A stretch of DNA of 64,000 nt from a virus (IMGVR_UViG_3300025572_000008:16606-80605), one strand, 5' to 3'; positions 4,243 to 60,998 are shown, numbered from the stretch's first letter. Translations and numbers: made by a program. Notes: a model not told the origin generated them from the sequence alone.

Positions 4243-4250
4243 CTTATACC
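4243..4250 (-). promoter_or_regulatory. putative early promoter motif (GGTATAAG on minus strand)
   Basis: CTTATACC on plus strand; TTGAA 18 nt to the right (TTCAA-N18-GGTATAAG on minus); upstream of the 4190 gene. Confidence 0.7.
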
Positions 4251-6880: not shown

Positions 6881-9800
6881 AGCCGACCACCTCCAACGTA
6901 TCTTTTCGTCTCCTAGGGAGCTCAGCCGAAAGGTCGACGCGGCGCTGATCGCAGGTATCCAATCGCAGTTCCCCATTGAAGGTAAGTACTTTACGCTCGT
7001 CGCAGAAAACGTCCGCGCCGAGCCGAAAACGTTCACCCATGAAGACGAGAAGGAAGCCATCCTTAAGTCCAAGTCTCTGACCTATCCAATCAAGGGAGAC
7101 CTTAAGCTCATCGATAAGGCGACCGGAAAGGTCGTGGCTGAGCAGAAGGATTTCTCCTTAATGGATGCCTTCCATCTCACCAACAAGCACACGCTGCTTT
7201 ACAAAGGAAATAACTACTCGGTTGCCAACCAACTCCAGCTTCGGCCTGGAGTCTACACTCGAGCCCGAGAGACGGGAGAGCTCGAAAGCCACGTCAACAC
7301 GGCTACGGGGCGCAGCTTCTCTCTGACTCTCGATCCTCAGACGGGATTGTTCTACGTCCAGATCCAATCCTCCTCGATTCCTCTGGCGCCGCTTCTGACT
7401 AGGGTATTCGGTGTTGGCCCGAAGGAAGTGAGCACGTACATCCCTGTCGAAGTTTGGGATGCGAACTTGAAGGCGAGTGCCGGGAAGGAGACCAAATACC
7501 TTTCTGATCTCTACAACCGACTGGTTTCAACCTCCAAGCGACGCCCAGGGGCCAGCCCTGAAGAGATGGCCTCTCAGCTTAAGGAGGCTCTGGAGAGCTC
7601 CCAACTGTCTCCGCAAACGACGCAAGTGACGTTGGGAAAGGCCTTGGGCAGCGTGACGTCGGAAACCATTCTACGAGCGATGAAGAACCTGGTCGACGTC
7701 CACGCCGGCCGACGTCCTGAGGACAACCGGGACTCCCTGCAGTTCAAGCGTGTCCAGAATCTGCCTGACTTCCTGGCTCGACGCTTCGAAAAGGAGCACC
7801 AATCGGTGACGAACGTTGCTCGGAAGATCAAGTACGAGCTCGATCGCATGGATCGAAACGATCCGAAGATCCGAGGGGCGATTGCTGCCAAGCCGTTCAA
7901 CAAGATCATGTCCAGCTACCTACTGGACAGCAATCTTGTGGCTACGCCTTCCGAGACCAATCCCGTTGAAAGCCTGGAGAATGTGGCCAAGGTGACCGTT
8001 CTGGGAGGTGGCGAAGGTGGCATCGAATCCTCTAGAGGTGTCCCCATGTCGGCCCGTGACATTGATCCCTCTCATCTAGGGATCATTGATCCGAGCCGGA
8101 CTCCGGAATCCGGACATGCTGGTATCGATCAGCGCTTCACCGTTTCTGCTCGCCGGGACGCCGACGGCAATCTCTACGCTCGTGTCCGAGACAACAGTGG
8201 CAAAACTCACTTCCTCTCGGTCCACGAGATGATGACGCACACGATCGGCTTCCCGCACCAAGAGGGGAAGAGGAAGGTTCAAGCACAGGTCAATGGGGAG
8301 CTGAAAGAGGTTGATCGCAGCAAGGTCGACTACTGGCTGGCTGACAGCACGGACATGTACACGATCACAACCAACCTCGTGCCGTTCCTCAATTCCAATC
8401 ACCCGGGACGCCTCACCATGGCAGGCAAGGCCATTCCTCAGGCCCTGTCTCTCGTTGATCGGGAAGCCCCTCTTGTTCAAACAACGAACGACGAAGGCGT
8501 TCCTTTCGTCAAGCTGCTCGGAAAAATCACGTCGACAATCTCCCCGGTGGACGGGGAAGTCACGGCTGTCACTTCGAAGCACATTGAGATCAAGAGCAAC
8601 GACGGTAAGACCCACAAGGTTCCTCTCGTCAAGAACTTGCCCTTTAACATGAAGGGCTTCCTGGACGATGAGACGCCTCTGGTCAAGCCTGGTGACAAGG
8701 TTAAGTATGGCGATGTCCTGGTCGACAACAACTACACGAAGAATGGTGAGCTGGCCATCGGCAAGAACTTGACTGTCGCCTATCTGCCGTACAAAGGCTA
8801 CAACCACGAGGACGGTTTGGTGATTAGCCGGTCGGCGGCCGAGAGCCTCGCTAGCCATCATGCTTACAAAATCGACTACGACGTGCAGGACACGTCCGTC
8901 ATGCGTAAGCAGCTGATCAACCGTTACTTTCCAGGAAGATACACCAAGGAGCAACTGGACAAGCTGGACGACAAGGGATTCGCAAAGGTTGGCGCGGTGC
9001 TGAACCACGGGGATCCCGTCTATGTTGTCCTGGAAAAGCGTGAGCCGACACCAGAAGACAAGATGCTTGGTCGGCTTCATAAGACGCTCGTTGCTCCGTA
9101 TCGTCCGGTTTCGGAAATCTGGACCCATGAAGAGCAAGGAGTCGTTGTCGACGCTCACACTGAAGGGAAGGCTATCCGGATCCTGGTACGATCGAAGAAG
9201 CCGCTTGAGATCGGAGACAAGCTTACCGGCCTGCACGGTAACAAAGGGATTGTGTCTCTGATCTTGGAAGATCACGAAATGCCTTACAACAAGGAGACCG
9301 GAAAGCCAGTGGATCTGTTGCTGAACCCGGCTTCGGTGACGTCCCGAATCAATCTTGGGCAGCTCATGGAGACGGCTGCGGCGAAGATCGCCCAGAAGAC
9401 AGGCAAGCCTTATCTCGTCCACAACTACTCTAAGAGCAGTAACATCGCCGATCTCAAGAAAGAACTCACGGCGCATGGACTGGACGATTCGGAGGTTCTG
9501 GTTGACCCCAAGACCGGCAAGGAGCTCGGCAAGGTTCTGACGGGCCCGCAATACATCGCCAAGCTGTACAAAACCACGGATCAGAACTGGTCGGCTCGCA
9601 ACGTCGGAAGTTACGACAATGCTATGCAGCCGACGAAAGGCGGGGAAGAAGGTTCCAAGGCCGTCGGCTACATGGAGATGCTGGGTCTGTTAGGCTCGGA
9701 TGCCCGCAAGAACCTCAAGGAAATCGCCACGATCAAATCCGAGAAGAATGAGGAGTTCTGGTCTCGTTTCCTGAACGGGCAGCCTCTTCCGAAGCCGAAG

Positions 9801-52228: not shown

Positions 52229-52774
52229 ATGTCTGAACTGCTTCTAAAACAAGCCGAAGCCTCGATGGGGCAGGCACCAATCTCCCATATCAAGGCCAAC
52301 CTGGACCGTCTCTTCGGCAAAGGCGTCTGGGTAGACTGGGAGCCGGAAACGCTAAGCATTGAGCTAGGCTTGATCATGGATGACCTGCTTCTCGAGAAAC
52401 TTACTGTCCTTAAGATTCTCGAGCAAGAGCCTGACCTGTTCTTCGATGACGTCACTTTCATGCTACATGCTACTGAGGTCATCAACAATCACGTCGCTGA
52501 TTTTGAGACGGTACCTATGCCGACGAGTCTCGAGTTGGCCTTTGCCATATCCGAAGTGAAGAAGATCAGGCAGGCAAACGATCTACCAGTGACCTTCCCG
52601 CTGTCATTCACTGCAGCAATCGCCTACCTTCTTCGGCAAGAAGGATATTCGAAACCGATCGAACCTTTCGATTTTGTCCCAGAGGCCATGCTCGAACATG
52701 GTCAGACGCCTGCAGATACCGAGGCTAAGAAGAAGGCAATCAAGACCTATATCGAGCACATGGAAAGCCTATGA
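52229..52774 (+). CDS. hypothetical protein
   Basis: 181 aa in the late operon. Confidence 0.7.
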   Translation: MSELLLKQAEASMGQAPISHIKANLDRLFGKGVWVDWEPETLSIELGLIMDDLLLEKLTVLKILEQEPDLFFDDVTFMLHATEVINNHVADFETVPMPTSLELAFAISEVKKIRQANDLPVTFPLSFTAAIAYLLRQEGYSKPIEPFDFVPEAMLEHGQTPADTEAKKKAIKTYIEHMESL

Positions 52775-53190
52775 TTCATCGAACAGTAGAAGCAAACACT
52801 CCCGTCGTTCTGACCCTCCTCAGTCCGACCGGAGAAACCGGAGAACAGGGTCCGGCAGACTTGGTGTTACTCAGGGATGGAGCCGTTGTCACCACGACAG
52901 AGGTCACCGTGACAGACGTCGGAATCCACGGACTCTATAACTTCACCTTTACGCCTCAATCGACGGGAACCTACACCCTCTACGCTTACGGAGCTATCCA
53001 GGCTCAGGTCGAGGTGGTCTCAACGTCCATCTATACCTACCTTCGGAATCTCGAAGACGAGGCCTTGGGCAGCTGGCAATGGAACAAGGCAGAGGGTACG
53101 TTGATCATGCTTCGACAGGACGGGACCGAACTCGCTTCCTTCGCGGTCGTTGACAATCTCACTGAAGCAAGCCGAGAACGGACGACTTAG
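52771..53190 (+). CDS. putative virion protein (Ig-like beta sandwich)
   Basis: GLYNFTFTPQSTGTYTLY pattern; ATGA overlap with the previous gene. Confidence 0.6.
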   Translation: MIHRTVEANTPVVLTLLSPTGETGEQGPADLVLLRDGAVVTTTEVTVTDVGIHGLYNFTFTPQSTGTYTLYAYGAIQAQVEVVSTSIYTYLRNLEDEALGSWQWNKAEGTLIMLRQDGTELASFAVVDNLTEASRERTT

Positions 53191-53211
53191 GCCTATCCCC
53201 TGCGAAGCTAA

Positions 53212-53238
53212 AAAAGCCCGGCTATGAACCGGGCTTTT
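53212..53238. terminator. bidirectional terminator
   Basis: AAAAGCCCGG/CCGGGCTTTT. Confidence 0.8.
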
Positions 53239-53247
53239 ATTTAGCCG

Positions 53248-54348
53248 TCAGAAAGGAGCCTCAAGAGTCTCTCCCTCAGAAGGTAGAGATTCCATCGAGG
53301 TCGCCTCTATGACTTCTGCCTCACGACTCCGACTCTTTGCCGGTTCAGTGGTCTTTTTAGAAACATCTTCAATAGCCTCTTCGGCAACCACTGTGGCGTT
53401 CATCTTTGCCAACGCTTTTTCCGTCTCAGTCTTGAATCTCTCTAGATACTTACCGACGTTCAGCAGTGACATGTTATATAGAGAAAGCTTTCCATACCTG
53501 GAAACCGCCTGAGTTTTATTAATTCGAAGAAGTTCATTGGCCGTGAGGTAGGTCGTAGACCGGGCCCCATCCAGACTGAGGGAGACCTGATAGTAGGTCA
53601 TCGGCTTGCAGTAATAGTAATTTTGCACGATACCCATGATCTCCGCCGCCATGATGGCATTGATCGCCAGAGTCTGGTCTAGATCCGCGCAACTTCCTTG
53701 ACCAGGCATGTCGGTGAGATTTTCGTAATAATCAATATCTATCGGAATGGCAGGAAGATCAAGGACTATAGGAGACATCTTCGGTATATCCTTGCTGTCC
53801 ATCAAGCCTTTTCCAGGAATGCAGGCAGAGTGATTGAAGAAGCGGACTTGCCCGAAGTTATCTTCGTTTCCAGCATCGATAAAGAAGGCTCCTTGGCCAA
53901 GATCTTTAGACGAGCTGTTGTAGTCGACCATGTTGATGATCGCCCGTCTAGCATCAGCCGTATCTACACACATAATAACGAGGGAATTGTAGAACGACGG
54001 ATCTCCTGTTACGTCCTTGAACAGCTCCCCAGAATTTAGGCCAACGACACGCTTCAGAACAGGGACTACATTGACCCCATAAGCACGCCCATATCGTTGA
54101 GCCAGAACCGAAGCCTTGTGCTTGCCGACGTCAGCCATGACGAAATTCTGACGTTGCAGGTTCTTCTGTTCGACTACGTCATCGTCGATGAGAAAGATCG
54201 TCGGATCATCCAGCCAGCCTCGAGGGTTCTTGTCTTTGCTGATCGAAGCGATGAACTGAGTCAGAAGCGGGACAAGACGAGATCCCGTACCTCCGCAGCC
54301 GATAACGAAGATCTTCGAAGGAATGGTGCGAGGTGTAAAGCGGAACAT
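53248..54348 (-). CDS. ThiF/E1-like adenylating enzyme (PRTRC-type)
   Basis: IFVIGCGGTGS, IDDDVVEQKNLQRQNF, GKHKA.VLA, IMCVDT..ARR, FIDAGN, GSCAD. Confidence 0.92.
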   Translation of the reverse strand: MFRFTPRTIPSKIFVIGCGGTGSRLVPLLTQFIASISKDKNPRGWLDDPTIFLIDDDVVEQKNLQRQNFVMADVGKHKASVLAQRYGRAYGVNVVPVLKRVVGLNSGELFKDVTGDPSFYNSLVIMCVDTADARRAIINMVDYNSSSKDLGQGAFFIDAGNEDNFGQVRFFNHSACIPGKGLMDSKDIPKMSPIVLDLPAIPIDIDYYENLTDMPGQGSCADLDQTLAINAIMAAEIMGIVQNYYYCKPMTYYQVSLSLDGARSTTYLTANELLRINKTQAVSRYGKLSLYNMSLLNVGKYLERFKTETEKALAKMNATVVAEEAIEDVSKKTTEPAKSRSREAEVIEATSMESLPSEGETLEAPF

Positions 54349-54388
54349 GAAAACTCCTTAAGGAAAATGTACAGGCCTGTACATTGTT

Positions 54389-54396
54389 CTTATACC
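54389..54396 (-). promoter_or_regulatory. putative early promoter motif GGTATAAG
   Basis: GTCAA-N17-GGTATAAG before the E1 gene. Confidence 0.65.
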
Positions 54397-54423
54397 GAAA
54401 ACAAGGCCTTAGCTTGACTGGCT

Positions 54424-54454
54424 AAAAAAAGCCTCTGAGTCATTCAGAGGCTTT
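54424..54454 (-). terminator. intrinsic terminator
   Basis: AAAGCCTCTGA/TCAGAGGCTTT stem with an A-run. Confidence 0.75.
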
Positions 54455-54459
54455 AGTAG

Positions 54460-55740
54460 CTAGAAGCCTTTGGAAGCGAGGCTTTCTTGAGCCGACGGAG
54501 ACAGGTGCTGATAGAGCTGGCGGAAGATCCGGATCTGGGCAGAGTCCGAACTTAGATCGAACATGTCCGAGATCAGCCCCTGTAGGAGCTCATCTTGACC
54601 GGCGAGTTCCGACATGTAGTGGTCGATTACGCAGTACGCTTCGGCCACCCCCTTGCCTTGATTGCACACAAGCTCATCGTAGCGAGGGTGAAAGGAGAGG
54701 TCGAGATCAGCCTCGTCATCGTTGAAGTTAGGCGAGAAGGGGTCAGCGACCTCGTTGCTTCCGTCCTCCTCGCCCACGGCTTTTCCCAGGTTCTTACCCC
54801 CGGCAACGTAGCCGTTGGCCAACATACCGGCTTCGTCTCCCATGCCCCAAAAGTCAGAGTCGAAATCGAGATGACCTGTTGCCATCAAAGCCCTATTGCG
54901 AGCCTGTAGTTGAGGCCCTGCTCGGTTGCCATTGATGAGATCTTTCTCGAGATCCTCTTTCTTGCGGAACTGATATGGCTTCAGGTGATCGGCCCGGCCT
55001 TTCTTGTCCAACGTGGAGGACGGCCACTTTCCACCTCCTACATAAGTGATACGAGGAGTCGACACATCCACCTTATCGAGCCACTCGTCCGGGACTTCAA
55101 CCGGTGCCACATCGAAGATGTCTTCGAATTTGGCCTCGAACTTGCGATCCTGGTAATTGAAACGCCATACGGTTTCGGGAACCGTTTGGTTCATCTTACC
55201 AACCACGCCAGAGAACGAGATATTCGCCCGATCGTCATTGTTGTCGGTGCCTGAGAAGAAGGCGTTCATGTTGTTGTGAGAATGGATGTCGACGATGATC
55301 GACGTCCCGGCCGGAACAGAAGACCAGTCGTAACGAACCGACGCTGCTGAGATCTGCTGATCAGGGATGATAATGTGATAACCCCGCTCTTGGCTGTAGC
55401 AGATCCATGCCATCGCCTCTAGAGCTTTGTCGCCATTCTTCTTCATAACACCATAGAAGAAGGCGAGAATCTGATCGAACAACTCCTTGGGGATTTTGCC
55501 GGCCGGCAAGAAGTTGATAGCTTGAGGAAGCTTAGGAGCTTCAAAGCCAGGGATACTGTTGACCTTGACTCGGATGTAACGATTCTCGCCGCGCAGCTTG
55601 TGGTGCTTGATGATGCCGTCCGCGGTAATTACATAGATTTCAGTATAGCCATCGGCGATGGCCTGTTCGAGCTCGTTTGGCTCGTCATCGCTGAGCGGCA
55701 TGTTTACAACGCAGCTCATATGAGGCGCTAGTACACGCAT
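54460..55740 (-). CDS. JAB/MPN metalloisopeptidase (PRTRC protein A-like) with long acidic C-terminus
   Basis: EAMAW (catalytic Glu), DIHSHNNMNAFFSGTDNNDD (HxH...S..D). Confidence 0.88.
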   Translation of the reverse strand: MRVLAPHMSCVVNMPLSDDEPNELEQAIADGYTEIYVITADGIIKHHKLRGENRYIRVKVNSIPGFEAPKLPQAINFLPAGKIPKELFDQILAFFYGVMKKNGDKALEAMAWICYSQERGYHIIIPDQQISAASVRYDWSSVPAGTSIIVDIHSHNNMNAFFSGTDNNDDRANISFSGVVGKMNQTVPETVWRFNYQDRKFEAKFEDIFDVAPVEVPDEWLDKVDVSTPRITYVGGGKWPSSTLDKKGRADHLKPYQFRKKEDLEKDLINGNRAGPQLQARNRALMATGHLDFDSDFWGMGDEAGMLANGYVAGGKNLGKAVGEEDGSNEVADPFSPNFNDDEADLDLSFHPRYDELVCNQGKGVAEAYCVIDHYMSELAGQDELLQGLISDMFDLSSDSAQIRIFRQLYQHLSPSAQESLASKGF

Positions 55741-55768
55741 GTTAACTCCTTAATGAATAGATTGAATA

Positions 55769-56503
55769 TTATGCCGGGGAGTATCCCGTGAGCTTCTCGT
55801 AAGGAAAAGGCTTGTCCTCTTTAGCCAGCTCCGAGAGAAGTGCATACCACTCTTTTGGAGGCATGGATCTTCTTATCGCATAGACGCCAAGGTCGTCATT
55901 GAAAGGGGATTCGAACATATACTGGTAGTACCAATCCAGTCCACGCAGATTGTTCTCCGAGAACCGACTGATCATTTGATTTCCGCCATAACACATATTC
56001 CCATTGTCATATGTATTCGACATAGGTAGCAGGAAGATGTGATTACTATGATCAAGTCGATTGATGAAGTCCCGAGGCAATCGAGAGACACTGAAATCCG
56101 TGCAAAAGTACTTCGATGATCGCACTCGCCAGATCTTCTCCCCTGTCCTTTCGAGAACGTGGCTGATTATCACGTTCGGCATGACAATGGGCATCTTTTT
56201 GTCGTAGTACTGGATAACTGCCTTTCGGGCTTGATAGTAGCAACTTAGCTGAATCTCGTTTCCCGACTTGGCAAAATAGAACACATTGGACGGAAGATTA
56301 AATCCTTCCAATTTTTGGTCTTCGTGAATACCAATGACGGAATTGAGGATATTCCGAAAATCATTCAAAGATATGGCCTTTTCTACACCGCCATTTAGAA
56401 TAACTTTGACGTGATCAGTAAAGATTTGAACATCCTGAAGCAGGACTTCAACCTTAGGCTCCTCCGCCATTGGCGATGTTTCAATCGCTTCCATATCGCT
56501 CAT
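55769..56503 (-). CDS. prokaryotic E2 family D-like protein (PRTRC protein B-like)
   Basis: LLPMSNTYDNGNMCYG with a conserved Cys; located between Ubl and JAB/E1 genes. Confidence 0.7.
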   Translation of the reverse strand: MSDMEAIETSPMAEEPKVEVLLQDVQIFTDHVKVILNGGVEKAISLNDFRNILNSVIGIHEDQKLEGFNLPSNVFYFAKSGNEIQLSCYYQARKAVIQYYDKKMPIVMPNVIISHVLERTGEKIWRVRSSKYFCTDFSVSRLPRDFINRLDHSNHIFLLPMSNTYDNGNMCYGGNQMISRFSENNLRGLDWYYQYMFESPFNDDLGVYAIRRSMPPKEWYALLSELAKEDKPFPYEKLTGYSPA

Positions 56504-56757
56504 ACAAAATCCTCTTCGAAATTGAGCGCATCACCTTGAAAGTGCTTGGCTTTAAAGAACTCCGATTCCATGAGATGCAAGTTTATCGCTCGCAAATCCT
56601 CGCTGTTATAGGTCCTGCGCCGGTACTTTCCAAGCACCTCCAAATCTTCGAGAGTTTGAATCCTAGGAATGCGAGAGACTACAGCTTCTCCATCAACTAG
56701 GTCGGAATTGAGGTCAGGAGCCTTCAGGAGCTCCGATGCTAAAAGCTGAAGAAACAT
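56500..56757 (-). CDS. hypothetical protein in the Ub-like cassette
   Basis: 85 aa, overlaps both neighbours. Confidence 0.6.
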   Translation of the reverse strand: MFLQLLASELLKAPDLNSDLVDGEAVVSRIPRIQTLEDLEVLGKYRRRTYNSEDLRAINLHLMESEFFKAKHFQGDALNFEEDFV

Positions 56758-57634
56758 AGCTGGTCTTACGGGTTAAAGTTCGAAGAGTGGATATGATCTG
56801 AGGGAGGTAGTAGAATACCTTCTCTGGAACCCAGTAACGACTATATCCTTCTAGAAAATCCTTCGAACTCAGGAGGGGTTCATCTGCGATATTTTTCGAA
56901 TGCCACTCAGATTGTGAGAACACCGTACTGGCCGGCTCGTGCTCGAGCCGGTTTGCGATGAACTCATCCAGCGACAGTAGACGGGGGTGATTAGCCCGAA
57001 CCAGGTCGTTGTACGGAAGATGACTCCAGTACACGATTTGAGCCATGATTTTGACCTCGTACTGTACCTCCGGAGACTCTGTTTTTAATGCGTCATAGTT
57101 TGAACTGAGAATCTCATAATATCTGGCCCTGGATTCTACAGAGAGATGAGAATGTCCAGAGGAATGGATCGAAATCGGTACGGCGTGCTTCAAACATATG
57201 TACCTGAGATATTGAACGTAACGTTCAACGGTTTTACCAAAGCGACTATCTTCGCAAAGCAGTCTTTTAGAAGTAATATCCAGCCTGGAAAACCCATAGT
57301 AGCTTCCGGAGTATCGGACTGGCCGGGATAACAGAGTGATTGAGAAAGTTGATCGGCCCAGTATTTCGAAAAACGGCTTCTGAGTGTATTCCACATAGGG
57401 AAGCTGTTTTTCGATGGCCCGGGAAAGCAGAGTCTTGAAGCGTACCAGAGAGCGTCGTGTCGGTGTGCCGCCAGAGGTGAAGTCGAAGTCGTATGAAAAC
57501 TGCTTAGTGGCAAGCTTCAGTTCGATAACTCTGTCTCGGCAATACTGTTGAATGCGTCGACTACATTCGCTCCGTATCCTGATGGCTCGGGCCCGTGGCC
57601 CTGTCGTTACATGAGGTATAAGTGCTGTTCGCAT
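56714..57634 (-). CDS. hypothetical protein in the Ub-like cassette
   Basis: 306 aa with AAGGA SD. Confidence 0.7.
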   Translation of the reverse strand: MRTALIPHVTTGPRARAIRIRSECSRRIQQYCRDRVIELKLATKQFSYDFDFTSGGTPTRRSLVRFKTLLSRAIEKQLPYVEYTQKPFFEILGRSTFSITLLSRPVRYSGSYYGFSRLDITSKRLLCEDSRFGKTVERYVQYLRYICLKHAVPISIHSSGHSHLSVESRARYYEILSSNYDALKTESPEVQYEVKIMAQIVYWSHLPYNDLVRANHPRLLSLDEFIANRLEHEPASTVFSQSEWHSKNIADEPLLSSKDFLEGYSRYWVPEKVFYYLPQIISTLRTLTRKTSYVSSAFSIGAPEGS

Positions 57635-57703
57635 TATGATTCCTTGAATACGAGGTTCGGCTTTTTGTAATCCGCTCCTACCTGTGACTAAAAAAAGCCG
57701 AAC

Positions 57704-57734
57704 AAAATAGGACGCCCCGAAGGGCGCCCTATTT
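57704..57734 (-). terminator. intrinsic terminator after the Ubl gene
   Basis: AAATAGG.CGCCC/GGGCG.CCTATTT stem. Confidence 0.65.
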
Positions 57735-57762
57735 CACGATTCAAGCCCGTAGCTCGGAGCTA

Positions 57763-57969
57763 TCAGCCCTTGTTGCCAGTGCGCGGCTTGAAAACGATCA
57801 GACGGGTCGCACCGCCATCCTCGTAGGTTTCTTCAGCCACCATGTTGGTGATACCGGGAACCTGGGATGCATAGTTATCCTTGATCTGCTGGGCAGTCCA
57901 GTTCCCAGGGATGCTGTATTCGGTGTCGGTCGAGGTGACGATGAACTTGGTCGTAGTAACGTTGGACAT
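57763..57969 (-). CDS. ubiquitin-like beta-grasp protein (PRTRC protein C-like)
   Basis: 68 aa; W.AQQIKDNYASQVPGITNM...IVFKPRTGNKG ends in the GxKG motif. Confidence 0.8.
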   Translation of the reverse strand: MSNVTTTKFIVTSTDTEYSIPGNWTAQQIKDNYASQVPGITNMVAEETYEDGGATRLIVFKPRTGNKG

Positions 57970-58047: not shown

Positions 58048-58055
58048 CTTATACC
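58048..58055 (-). promoter_or_regulatory. putative early promoter motif GGTATAAG
   Basis: TTCAA-N16-GGTATAAG before the Ubl gene. Confidence 0.7.
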
Positions 58056-58099
58056 AAGGATTTGCAATTTGTTGAAGTGACAAAATATAGCCGTCGTCT

Positions 58100-58138: not shown

Positions 58139-58522
58139 TTATAACCAGCCACAGGCGCGATATTCCTGCGTCTCGGATAGCAGTCGAACGGCCAGGTCGG
58201 CCCTTGCTCGCAACAGTTCCTTGTATAGGAAGGTTCTGTCGGCCTTGTCTTCCGAGCATTGGTAGATGAGGCAGCAAAGGGATTTGTAGAGCTGCATGAC
58301 CGACGTTGTTGGATCGACGGGTTCGTGCACGTACTTCGGAACCCGTCGTCTACTGCGATAGCGGGCGTTCACCGCTTTGGTGTTGAGCCGGTACAGCTCT
58401 TGACCGAGTTCGGCAAGGTCTTCGTCCTTTGTGAGATCCTTGCCATAAAACGGCCTTCGAAGAGATTGGAGAGCGTAAAGAGCTCTTTGAATAGTGCCGT
58501 TCTCGACTATGTAAGCAGACAT
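58139..58522 (-). CDS. hypothetical protein
   Basis: 127 aa with AAGGA SD. Confidence 0.75.
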   Translation of the reverse strand: MSAYIVENGTIQRALYALQSLRRPFYGKDLTKDEDLAELGQELYRLNTKAVNARYRSRRRVPKYVHEPVDPTTSVMQLYKSLCCLIYQCSEDKADRTFLYKELLRARADLAVRLLSETQEYRACGWL

Positions 58523-58548
58523 TGGTTAATCCTTCGTTACTGGGTTGC

Positions 58549-59277
58549 TCATTCGCCAACGATTCCTTTTAGCAGCCACGAGAAGAGGCTAGGCTGAACG
58601 TCATGGTTGCTAGACCTCCGCCCAGGTGGTTTCGGTTCACTGACCTCGATAGGGATTTCTGAGGTTCGAGAGGGCTTTCTGTGGCGGACCACATTCCTTC
58701 TTTCCATGCTCTTCTGGTGTCTCTCCCTCCTGACTTGTGCATTGATGACCTTACGACGGATCTCGGAGGCCAGTTCCTTGTAATGTTGATAGAGAAGGCC
58801 TTTGGGTTCGAGAACCTCCCTGTCAGGAATCGGTTCTTGATTGAGCATTTTCCAGTACTCCTCGACCGGCTTCCTATAGTAGCGGGCCGCCGCATGTGTG
58901 GAGGCCCACAGGTAGAGCTGGGTCGAGAGGTAGTGAAGGGGTGCCTCCATGGCCGCGGGGTACATGACCACGGCAATTTCGGTGGGCCCGACCGGCATAC
59001 GGAGCTTACCAAGAGCAATCTCGGTACGCTCTGCCCGCACCTGGTCGAACATCCATTTCGGGATGGTCTTTCCCCAGTTGCTCGGACCCTTGTGATAGAG
59101 GATCGGCCCTCTTAGAAACCTGGCATCGTCCAGGTTCATTTGATGACCACCCATCTCGAGCAGCGCGGAGACGACGGGAGCCGGAACCCCCATCTCCGAT
59201 ATGAGAGAGAGCAGCTTAGCGTTGCTATCGTCTATGGTGCTTTGCTGCTCTCTTGCGGACCCGGTAGACATTGTCAA
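58549..59277 (-). CDS. hypothetical protein
   Basis: 242 aa ORF overlapping the upstream gene. Confidence 0.65.
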   Translation of the reverse strand: MTMSTGSAREQQSTIDDSNAKLLSLISEMGVPAPVVSALLEMGGHQMNLDDARFLRGPILYHKGPSNWGKTIPKWMFDQVRAERTEIALGKLRMPVGPTEIAVVMYPAAMEAPLHYLSTQLYLWASTHAAARYYRKPVEEYWKMLNQEPIPDREVLEPKGLLYQHYKELASEIRRKVINAQVRRERHQKSMERRNVVRHRKPSRTSEIPIEVSEPKPPGRRSSNHDVQPSLFSWLLKGIVGE

Positions 59278-59951
59278 CCCGTCCGTTGACCGACGTCGTA
59301 CTTGGCGAGAAACTCTCGGGCTGCTTGGGCCGTGCCGTCCTTCTCATACCTGGCCATGGCCTGGAGATAGATCTCCTCGCCGTCCTTGTTTTTGTTGACC
59401 CAGGACGGCCTGTAGAGCCCCGCCAGAAACTGGGCGTGCTCACGTATGTGCTGCTGGAGCATTTCCGACCGAGACCGATCCTCTCGAACCGCATCGTAAC
59501 GGCCATGGAAGACATGGCCGTCCTCGAACGCCACGACGATGTCGACCTTGTCGTACCCTTCTCCCTCCAACGGAGCCGTCTCGGCGATCCTACGGATCAC
59601 CCGATCGGCCTCATCGTAGGTTCTGACGATAATCGGTTCGTCGACATTGACCGACGCTCCTCGTAACGGCCCGGTTGCACGGATCAGCGTGATCTCTTTA
59701 GGTTTGATGAGAGGAGGGAGCTCGGGGACGTATCGACCGTCGAGCCGAGGCCAGATGTCCGAGATCCGTTCGCCGAAATCCGCCCAGGCTTCTGGCAGGG
59801 ATAGGTCGTAATGACCGGAAAAGAAGTTTCCGGTATCATCATTGCGGATCTGAGTGCAGTAGGTACCGTTTTCATGTCGACGAAGAATGACCGTGACCCT
59901 GGCGGCGGAGTCTTCGATTTTGGGAATCGATTGCTGAGCAATGATCTGCAT
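59274..59951 (-). CDS. hypothetical protein, possible LPD25-like (polyvalent-protein) domain
   Basis: GYDKVDIVVAFEDGHVFHGRYD resembles LPD25 from memory; not verified. Confidence 0.5.
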   Translation of the reverse strand: MQIIAQQSIPKIEDSAARVTVILRRHENGTYCTQIRNDDTGNFFSGHYDLSLPEAWADFGERISDIWPRLDGRYVPELPPLIKPKEITLIRATGPLRGASVNVDEPIIVRTYDEADRVIRRIAETAPLEGEGYDKVDIVVAFEDGHVFHGRYDAVREDRSRSEMLQQHIREHAQFLAGLYRPSWVNKNKDGEEIYLQAMARYEKDGTAQAAREFLAKYDVGQRTG

Positions 59952-60009
59952 GGATCATCGTTCCTTTCTTTCTGAAGATGCAGGAAAAGGCCTCTCGAGG
60001 CACAGAGGT

Positions 60010-60474
60010 TTAAGAAACCGAAGCTACGTTAAGGCCACCGTTGATAGCGATTTCGATGATGTCGGAGATCTCAGTGAAAGATGCTATCTTTCCATCGTTA
60101 AGATCTACGAGCCTCCACGTTCTGAAGTCTTCTAGTCCAGGAGGTGAGAGGGTTATCCGGAAACCGTCCGGACCAAGAATACCGAAAAAGTCTTGCACTC
60201 CCTTAGTTAGGACGACATTAGATTCTCCGGTTTCATCAGCGTACACGGAGACCTTTTTGAACTCCCTCCATTTTCCGAACCCATTCTTACGAGCTACGTC
60301 ACAGGCTACTCCAAGGCAACAAAAACCTTCAGGAACCTTCAGAGCGCCAGTTTGTTGACGATACTCTCCTGAACGCAAAGCATCAATCCACTGCCGGCAA
60401 CGCTCTTTTTGCTCAGAAGGGATGTTCGAGAAGTCAGGAATTGTGTTGACGGTGTAACCGTTAGACAGCTTCAC
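60010..60474 (-). CDS. hypothetical phage protein
   Basis: WIDALRSGEY.Q..G.L...FCCLGVACD; GTG start with GGAG SD. Confidence 0.7.
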   Translation of the reverse strand: MKLSNGYTVNTIPDFSNIPSEQKERCRQWIDALRSGEYRQQTGALKVPEGFCCLGVACDVARKNGFGKWREFKKVSVYADETGESNVVLTKGVQDFFGILGPDGFRITLSPPGLEDFRTWRLVDLNDGKIASFTEISDIIEIAINGGLNVASVS

Positions 60475-60492
60475 GTTACTGGTCTCCAAAAG

Positions 60493-60514
60493 AAAAGGGC
60501 CCTGAAAAGGGCCC
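60493..60514 (-). terminator. putative terminator
   Basis: GGGCCC/GGGCCC stem with an A-run. Confidence 0.5.
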
Positions 60515-60524
60515 AAGTGACTAC

Positions 60525-60998
60525 TTAGCAGACTTTGGTTGCTAGAAACCAGAAGTCATCATACCTGTGTATCCGTATCCAGGGTTGACGGAGTCCGGTG
60601 AAGTCGAACACTCGGCTGTTGCCACTTTGATAGAACTCTTCCGTGCGAACAGTCAGATATCGACCGTTCACACAGTCAAGAGCGTAGATGTGATCGTATG
60701 CAGGGTCGAAGTCTACAACGTCGTCTGCGTAATCCTCGTTGGCCTTCGTGATTATCTCGGTACGATAGTACTGCCTGACATTCACGAAGGTCAGGCCATG
60801 CCTCTCGTAGATCGAGTTTGAGTCAAAGGCTGAGTACAGGTACCGACCCCTCCCTCGATCAAAGTACACGTAGTCAACCCACCCGCTCGGGTGGACGTGT
60901 ACGACGTTGACTTGCTGGGCATAAGCCGGGGAGAGCAGAGCCGCGTATACCAAAAGGACAGCAAGGCACGTTACGGCTTTCGCAAGCTTTGAGAACAT
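60525..60998 (-). CDS. exported protein with signal peptide
   Basis: MFSKLAKAVTCLAVLLVYAALLSPAYA|QQ signal peptide; beta-rich mature part. Confidence 0.75.
   Translation of the reverse strand: MFSKLAKAVTCLAVLLVYAALLSPAYAQQVNVVHVHPSGWVDYVYFDRGRGRYLYSAFDSNSIYERHGLTFVNVRQYYRTEIITKANEDYADDVVDFDPAYDHIYALDCVNGRYLTVRTEEFYQSGNSRVFDFTGLRQPWIRIHRYDDFWFLATKVC

Follow-up and report, generated by a model that had tools for sequence, protein, structure and literature searches.

The DNA examined here is a 64,000-nt window (the whole stretch that was analyzed) of a viral record in IMG/VR (168,216 bp, 92% complete), and our subject is a cassette of six genes on its minus strand (positions 53248–57969) that encodes, in order, a ubiquitin-like modifier (Ubl), two proteins that we call X306 and Y85, an E2-like protein, a JAMM/JAB metallopeptidase (JAB), and a ThiF-type E1. 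Terminase, head protease, tail sheath, and RNA polymerase beta genes in the record mark the source as a large tailed phage, specifically a 168-kb myovirus. The Ubl (57763–57969, 68 aa), which is identified by its fold model and by homology, ends in ...FKPRTGNKG with the stop codon following at once. X306 (56714–57634, 306 aa) is conserved in relatives and occupies the position of PRTRC protein F, while Y85 (56500–56757, 85 aa) overlaps both the end of X306 and the start of the E2 gene. The E2-like protein (55769–56503, 244 aa), assigned to Prok-E2_D by Pfam and alignment, contains the sequence NTYDNGNMC and a putative catalytic cysteine, Cys171. The JAB (54460–55740, 426 aa), which matches Prok-JAB and PRTRC_A, contains an HSH motif and has a long C-terminal extension, and the E1 (53248–54348, 366 aa) matches ThiF and PRTRC_ThiF and lacks a rhodanese domain. 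All six open reading frames (ORFs), including the RTGNKG, NTYDNGNMC, and HSH motifs, had been recognized in an original prediction made from the DNA alone, and each lies where that prediction placed it. We consider it probable, though by no means assured, that the cassette is an active, self-contained Ubl protein-conjugation system and belongs to the vertically inherited core of a myovirus clade.

Salmonella phage Arash and the Vibrio phages D69, D148, and D181 share the six-gene set, and a scan of IMG/VR with an E2 profile recovers the cassette in 25 loci with identical gene order. In most relatives, the divergent neighbor of the Ubl gene is the terminase gene, TerL. Among 36 IMG/VR loci anchored on TerL and flanked by 6.7 kb or more of sequence, E2, JAB, E1, and a convergent 139-aa neighbor are found beside TerL in 34, and in the remaining two, E2 is located elsewhere in the same record. 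Identity to the window proteins correlates with TerL identity for E2, JAB, and E1 (Spearman coefficients of 0.76, 0.54, and 0.84, respectively) over 28 distinct loci, which are related to one another and thus are not independent points. This combination of a fixed position beside TerL and co-divergence with TerL indicates that the cassette belongs to the core of the clade and is inherited vertically. The clade consists of 165–193-kb myoviruses and includes Arash, D69/D148/D181, and many uncultured relatives. In the record with the most distant TerL (that of locus L085, 37% identity), an E2 homologue is located approximately 16 kb from TerL (G001:C1:105629-106333), with one in-frame TAG within the match.

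The Ubl is predicted by AlphaFold to adopt a bb-a-bb beta-grasp fold with a loose C-terminal tail (predicted local distance difference test score, pLDDT, of 87.9). Its fold matches include MoaD (Z 5.1), the ubiquitin-like TINCR protein (Z 5.0), and Fubi, ubiquitin, ISG15, and SUMO (Z 4–4.6), and several AFDB entries named PRTRC system protein C superimpose on the model with template modeling (TM) scores of 0.62–0.67; a Foldseek search of the PDB returns weak protein G and protein L matches at best. In an alignment of 21 homologues, the C-terminal motif is [RK][TS]G.KG, with F60, G65, K67, and G68 invariant. Alignment with hhalign to PRTRC_C of the Paraburkholderia plasmid pBC201 (probability of 86.7%, E 4.4e-6) pairs the phage ...TFKPRTGNKG with the plasmid ...TFMRAAGAKG. 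Neither the Ubl nor X306 or Y85 is matched by any model in Pfam, NCBIfam, PHROGs, or PADLOC, and a PHROGs search gives only two weak matches of unknown function.

In most relatives, the Ubl gene ends directly at the terminal glycine, and several other arrangements also occur in the clade. Two near-identical copies are joined head to tail in loci L006/7/9/10/11, L046/47, L081, L082, and L086, the Ubl gene of Vibrio phage D69 contains three copies and a 5-aa tail, and that of L029 contains three copies plus two diverged copies. C-terminal tails of 1–17 residues are found in L015, L018, L064, and L081. The full tail motif is retained in every repeat of the multi-copy genes, which is the architecture of a polyubiquitin precursor and implies cleavage after KG. 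The cassette JAB is the obvious candidate for this cut. Eukaryotic polyubiquitin genes likewise consist of head-to-tail, near-identical repeats, sometimes with a short C-terminal tail that is to be removed, and eukaryotic viruses are known that carry a modifier gene of their own in the form of virus-encoded ubiquitin. The phage clade resembles both in having repeat genes, tails, and its own modifier. Unlike ubiquitin, however, the phage Ubl shares only the beta-grasp fold and terminates in G-x-K-G rather than R-G-G; furthermore, the candidate processing enzyme is the JAMM peptidase of the cassette, and the E1 and E2 are phage-encoded as well.

The true Ubl of Arash is an unannotated ORF (L002:107-307) of 66 aa that ends in RRTGTKG. 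In the deposited genome (OQ632216), the annotated gp251c (L002:102-320, 72 aa) overlaps the real Ubl gene in the wrong frame.

In Pfam, the E1 scores 51.1 bits against ThiF, the JAB scores 32.9 bits against Prok-JAB, and the E2 scores 25.6 bits against Prok-E2_D (PF14460; gathering cut-off of 25) over residues 151–239 only. PDB sequence searches gave no relative for the JAB, E1, or E2 profile. The E2 has 127 homologues, many of which carry a precomputed PF14460 label, and N163, Y165, C171, G173, and N175 are invariant in 22 sequences. The spacing of 8 between N163 and C171 equals that from the HPN asparagine to the catalytic cysteine in classical E2s of the UBC fold. With hhalign, this active-site region aligns with PRTRC_B (E 2.4e-4). 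In the JAB, the complete E...HxH...S..D motif of JAMM peptidases (E108, H153, H155, S163, and D166) is invariant in 16 sequences, and the active-site residues are intact also where the Ubl is encoded in its finished form, which suggests that the peptidase serves deconjugation as well as processing. The E1 has an invariant GxGGTG loop, R24, D55, D57, R66, D129, and C220, the last within SCADLxQ (16 sequences). The residues expected to be catalytic in the three enzymes are thus invariant across relatives, which makes conjugation chemistry plausible. The original prediction is supported to this extent: the set of Ubl, E2, JAB, and E1 is complete, and its putative catalytic residues are conserved.

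Several irregularities are found in the enzyme genes of relatives. The E1 of Vibrio phage D69 (L003:7031-7972) is annotated from an internal methionine as a 251-aa protein; the sequence 5' of it encodes, in the same frame, a Rossmann GCGGTGS loop but no ATG, GTG, or TTG start, so a non-canonical codon farther upstream is the probable start of the gene. In some relatives, the JAB gene is interrupted precisely at the HxH catalytic codons (L016:8150-8425; L017:8226-8500 and 8419-9291(-)) by an insert that matches the Rfam group I intron model over its full length, with scores below threshold (29–33 bits, E 8e-4 to 6e-5). By eye, the ORF within the L017 insert contains repeated ...ADGC/...GDGC motifs that suggest a LAGLIDADG-type homing endonuclease. 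In other relatives (L006:9122-9801, L018:9413-9948, and L028), 0.6–1.9 kb with 2–3 small extra ORFs separates JAB from E1, and one such ORF is cysteine-rich (CxxC...CxxC).

The arrangement of terminators and promoter-like motifs suggests how the cassette may be transcribed. The Ubl gene is flanked by intrinsic terminators on the minus strand: that of the upstream gene (58123–58105), which combines an 8-bp GC-rich stem with a T run and insulates the Ubl unit on its 5' side, and a strong but probably leaky one (57737–57702) with a 16-bp stem and T run on the 3' side. A shared motif, GGTATAAGA, precedes both the Ubl and E1 genes: a promoter-like extended -10 motif, TGGTATAAG, lies 5' of Ubl (58048–58056, minus strand), and a promoter-like motif, CGGTATAAG, lies 5' of E1 (54389–54397, minus strand), both of which are identified by motif recurrence. 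The JAB gene ends in a terminator hairpin with a T run (54424–54452, minus strand), and a further hairpin terminator (53210–53235, with no strand assigned) lies between E1 and the convergent structural-side gene; both were read directly from the sequence. The original prediction that Ubl forms its own transcription unit and that E1 has its own promoter is supported by the terminators and the promoter-like motif. The extended -10-like motif (T/C)GGTATAAG occurs at window positions 4249, 4611, 17674, 34951, 44618, 47717, 54395, 58054, and 62072, always on the minus strand, and the genes that bear it include those for the clamp, a retron-like reverse transcriptase (RT) unit, an HNH endonuclease, Ubl, E1, and others. 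As no plus-strand structural gene has this motif, it likely represents one promoter class of this phage, of a non-structural type, and the early timing that the original prediction gave to the cassette promoters is plausible. A sigma-70 scan gave no canonical promoter in the cassette, and Rfam gave nothing relevant in this region of the window. The extended -10-like motif is also missing 5' of X306, which implies that X306-Y85-E2-JAB is probably transcribed by read-through of the Ubl terminator. With the Ubl gene forming its own unit ahead of a leaky terminator, the modifier would be made in excess over the enzymes.

Two bioreactor metatranscriptome runs, X4 and X18, contain the cassette. In X18, an RNA contig extends to 58030, approximately 10 nt below the start expected from the TGGTATAAG motif. 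In X4, one contig (56851–57978) crosses the Ubl terminator into X306, and another covers E1 (53262–54385) and stops just below CGGTATAAG. The breaks in X4 fall at 54385/54406, where the E1 promoter and JAB terminator lie, and at 53208/53262, at the E1 terminator, whereas a DNA run is continuous. The contig breaks in X4 and X18 fit the predicted transcription units. Contig depth for Ubl versus the other cassette contigs is 29.4 versus 3–7 in X18 and 25.8 versus 4.5–15 in X4, a hint of excess Ubl RNA from depths that cannot rank genes.

Protein-level evidence comes from Arash, for which liquid chromatography–mass spectrometry of sucrose-gradient-purified particles yielded a list of proteins (PMC10585845). 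The reported coverages of 77.17%, 61.41%, and 76.25% equal 267/346 residues of E1, 253/412 of JAB, and 244/320 of the X306 homologue, respectively. These values fit one mapping only, in which the numbers in the paper (Table 2) are the GenBank numbers plus one. Gp247 of the paper is thus E1, Gp248 is JAB, and Gp251 is the X306 homologue, while Gp249 (100% coverage) is E2 by the same offset. Each of these four proteins is represented by 226–430 spectra, compared with 1333 for the major capsid protein (PMC10585845). Ribonucleotide reductases are among the 116 proteins of the preparation, and its authors warn of carry-over (PMC10585845). Because the true Ubl ORF is missing from the Arash annotation, neither the modifier nor its conjugates could have been detected.

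X306 and Y85 are the two clade-specific proteins of the cassette. X306 has 87 representative homologues, all of 250–320 aa, and Arash and D69 each encode a homologue. The X306 model is of high confidence (pLDDT of 91.2), but searches of the PDB, AFDB clusters, VIA wide (best Z 4.5), and Atlas revealed no convincing relative by fold. Y85 is found at the same place in related loci, including those of Arash and D69. It is small and fast-evolving (mean column identity of 24%), and its C-terminus in the window is acidic and ends in ...DFV. Neither protein is matched by an NCBIfam model at E<=0.1. A complex prediction of E2, Ubl, and Y85 with X306 as partner gave a score that was not specific once E2 was swapped. 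X306 and Y85 occupy the slot of PRTRC protein F and are the likeliest candidates for specificity factors, or may themselves be first substrates. Nearly all Y85 homologues end in an acidic ...(D/E)DF(V/I/L), and several E1 C-termini are also acidic-aromatic (EAPF, EEPF, DQF, and FDF); these acidic tails of Y85 homologues and E1s may be docking tails.

The nearest known kind of system is PRTRC/Prok-E2_D, of which the cassette is not a canonical member. PRTRC comprises the NCBIfam families TIGR03734–03742 and is equated with operon type 6d of Iyer, Burroughs & Aravind 2006, in which a Ubl with a C-terminal glycine is accompanied by JAB, E1, and E2 proteins and by a rapidly diverging alpha-helical protein (PMC1779556). 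A role of PRTRC/type 6d operons in ubiquitin-like conjugation was predicted in 2006 (PMC1779556), and canonical PRTRC has also been noted in temperate Burkholderia phages. On plasmid pBC201, the canonical order is ParB-E-C-F-B-A-ThiF, and the phage order of Ubl-X306(-Y85)-E2-JAB-E1 matches the C-F-B-A-ThiF portion. Homology between the Ubl and PRTRC_C extends to the C-terminal G-x-K-G, and the pBC201 protein ends in ...AGAKG plus 3 residues. The likeness to type 6d extends to a small beta-grasp protein with a conserved C-terminal glycine and an E1 that lacks a rhodanese domain and has a JAB gene adjacent to it. However, every PRTRC model is either below its cut-off or missed. The best NCBIfam matches are PRTRC_ThiF for E1 (95.8 bits, cut-off of 144.75), PRTRC_A for JAB (73.5 bits, cut-off of 101.8), and PRTRC_B for E2 (15.2 bits, cut-off of 131.45), and weak ThiF/MoeB hidden Markov model (HMM) matches are also present. 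Across the 168-kb genome, the ParB family (TIGR03734) has no match at E<=1, PRTRC_C (TIGR03738) has no HMM match, and PRTRC protein D has no match, and the cassette itself lacks ParB, D, and E. X306 is dissimilar to PRTRC protein F (hhalign probability of 0.2% against the pBC201 protein), and Y85 is extra. The phage JAB and E1 are longer than their PRTRC counterparts (426 versus 213 aa and 366 versus 277 aa, respectively) by virtue of long C-terminal extensions. In the E2 of type 6d, the cysteine is conserved, the classical histidine is missing, and a histidine on the C-terminal side of the cysteine is absolutely conserved (PMC1779556), whereas no conserved histidine follows the cysteine of the phage E2. 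Finally, the carrier is a large myovirus with the cassette as a core module rather than a plasmid or an integrative and conjugative element (ICE), and poly-Ubl genes occur in the phage clade. The match to PRTRC and prokaryotic E2 family D operons that the original prediction proposed is therefore sound in gene order, nearest relative, and Pfam Prok-E2_D assignment, but it does not extend to the PRTRC scores, to the ParB, C, and D models, or to the E2 histidine.

Host defense systems such as Bil (bacterial ISG15-like), Bub, and the Cap2/Cap3 proteins of the type II cyclic-oligonucleotide-based antiphage signaling system (CBASS) share with the cassette a separate or fused E1 and E2, a JAB-type peptidase, and a beta-grasp modifier, and they carry out true conjugation. 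Some of their Ubls contain up to three beta-grasp domains; the domains of the multi-domain Bil and Bub Ubls are not known to be repeat units that each end in a conjugation motif, whereas the phage Ubl repeats each keep this motif. The PADLOC models for Cap3, Bil, and Cap2 have no match for the JAB, E2, or Ubl, and the nucleotide-binding loop of the E1 matches the Cap2 'E1-E2' models only weakly (at most 23.8 bits). A pairing of a Ubl that has a conserved C-terminal glycine with a JAB is also found in the tail assembly proteins I (Ubl) and K (JAB plus NlpC/P60) of lambdoid and T1 phages, but these lie inside the tail module with no E1 or E2, whereas the Arash-like cassette encodes a full cascade.

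Together, these features suggest a mechanism in which E1 would adenylate Gly68 of the Ubl and take it up as a thioester, probably on Cys220, after which the Ubl would pass to Cys171 of E2 and then to lysines of target proteins. X306 and Y85 would steer specificity or act as the first substrates. The JAB would cut after ...G-x-K-G, both to release monomers from poly-Ubl or tailed precursors and to strip the tag from targets, and such removal would make tagging reversible. Given the fixed place of the cassette and its co-divergence with the terminase, its most likely role is in the infection program of the phage itself, through action on phage or host proteins needed in each infection, rather than in optional counter-defense. 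A stronger form of this proposal is that Arash-like phages depend on their own Ubl signaling in every infection, with polyubiquitin-type precursors, a cognate JAMM peptidase, and targeting by X306 and Y85; this we put forward only tentatively, as we think it somewhat less probable than its converse.

A number of points weigh against an active conjugation system serving infection. Pfam backing for the E2 is marginal and confined to its C-terminal half, and in 22 sequences there is no invariant histidine after C171, with an aspartate aligned to the histidine of PRTRC_B. The catalytic cysteine of E1 is assigned from conservation as the sole basis. The literature that we searched contains no functional study of PRTRC or of phage-encoded E1/E2/JAB/Ubl systems and no biochemical data for this or any PRTRC-type system. 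The contig depths cannot rank expression, and the RNA libraries may hold DNA. Detection in Arash particles demonstrates expression at the protein level and is not proof of packaging. Lastly, core status is also compatible with an anti-defense role if the defense in question is universal among hosts.

This last point bears on a function in counter-defense against host Ubl immunity such as Bil or type II CBASS, in which the JAB would strip host-added tags from phage proteins or cGAS-like enzymes, or the cassette would tag and neutralize defense proteins. Host systems of this kind share the chemistry of the cassette, Bil attaches its modifier to a phage tail protein, the authors of the Bil work speculate that phage deubiquitinase (DUB) domains could counter it, and the promoter class of the cassette is common to auxiliary genes such as that of the retron-like RT. 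Nonetheless, we regard this function as unlikely. The JAB, E2, and Ubl have no PADLOC Cap3, Bil, or Cap2 match and only the E1 loop is weakly Cap2-like; the cassette is universal, position-fixed, and co-diverging, whereas typical anti-defense loci are variable; and the removal of tags would need nothing beyond a DUB, yet the cassette invariably retains E1, E2, and a Ubl in over-supply. Removal of host-added tags by the JAB had been raised in the original prediction, and we find nothing that links the enzyme to it: beyond the missing Cap3 and Bil matches, relatives encode cognate substrates in the form of poly-Ubl and tailed precursors. A role linked to the virion, in which the Ubl would serve as an assembly tag, stabilizer, or removable chaperone on head, packaging, or tail proteins and some enzymes would enter the particle, has perhaps one chance in a few of being correct. 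It would account for the location of the cassette, always with the terminase gene on one side and a structural-side gene on the other, and for the presence of E1, JAB, E2, and the X306 homologue in purified Arash particles, and the lambdoid I and K proteins already pair a Ubl with a JAB in tail assembly. The promoter motif, however, is of the non-structural type that is missing from plus-strand structural genes, the Arash preparation contains many cytoplasmic enzymes with carry-over cautioned by its authors, and no conjugate could be seen there with the Ubl ORF unannotated.

Two further functions appear much less probable. The Ubl could act as a sulfur carrier through a thiocarboxylate, like ThiS, MoaD, or TtuB, or its target could be a small molecule, a nucleic acid, or a lipid rather than a protein. 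The descent of E1 and Ubl from ThiF and ThiS/MoaD ancestors, the high rank of MoaD among the Ubl fold matches, and the weak ThiF/MoeB HMM matches are in line with this idea, which we nevertheless judge improbable: the E1 lacks a rhodanese domain, the cassette lacks sulfur-pathway genes, and an invariant-cysteine E2, a constant JAB, an over-supplied Ubl, and polyubiquitin-like precursors fit stoichiometric protein tagging instead. Least credible is a partition or maintenance cassette, as which PRTRC is often annotated ('ParB/ThiF partitioning cassette') and which would suit the PRTRC name and the plasmid, ICE, and temperate-phage context of canonical members. The 168-kb genome contains no ParB-family match, the myoviruses that have the cassette beside their terminase gene are large and virulent-looking, and no lysogeny genes were reported in Arash (PMC10585845).

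What is new here is the core, co-diverging status of the cassette, the polyubiquitin-like genes, the presence in metatranscriptomes, and the identities in the Arash particle proteome. If Arash-like phages do depend on their own Ubl signaling, the cassette would rank as the first PRTRC-type system open to functional study and as a counterpart, in bacterial viruses, of the ubiquitin encoded by eukaryotic viruses. Two branches of the clade are cultured (Arash on a laboratory S. Typhimurium strain, and Vibrio phages D69/D148/D181), which opens an old question to phage genetics, proteomics, and biochemistry. The polyubiquitin-like genes offer a direct and simple peptidase assay and show that such a gene architecture arose in bacterial viruses as well. 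With the corrected frame of the Arash Ubl, existing mass spectrometry data can be searched anew for the modifier and its conjugates.

Beyond the cassette, five minus-strand ORFs (58139–60998; 127–242 aa) with no Pfam match separate the clamp gene from the Ubl unit. Most relatives lack this block, and TerL adjoins the Ubl gene directly there. At the other end, the convergent 139-aa neighbor (52771–53190, plus strand) is syntenic in all loci by tblastn, which establishes linkage and not a role in the system, and its Arash homologue is gp245, which is labeled as structural in the Arash annotation.

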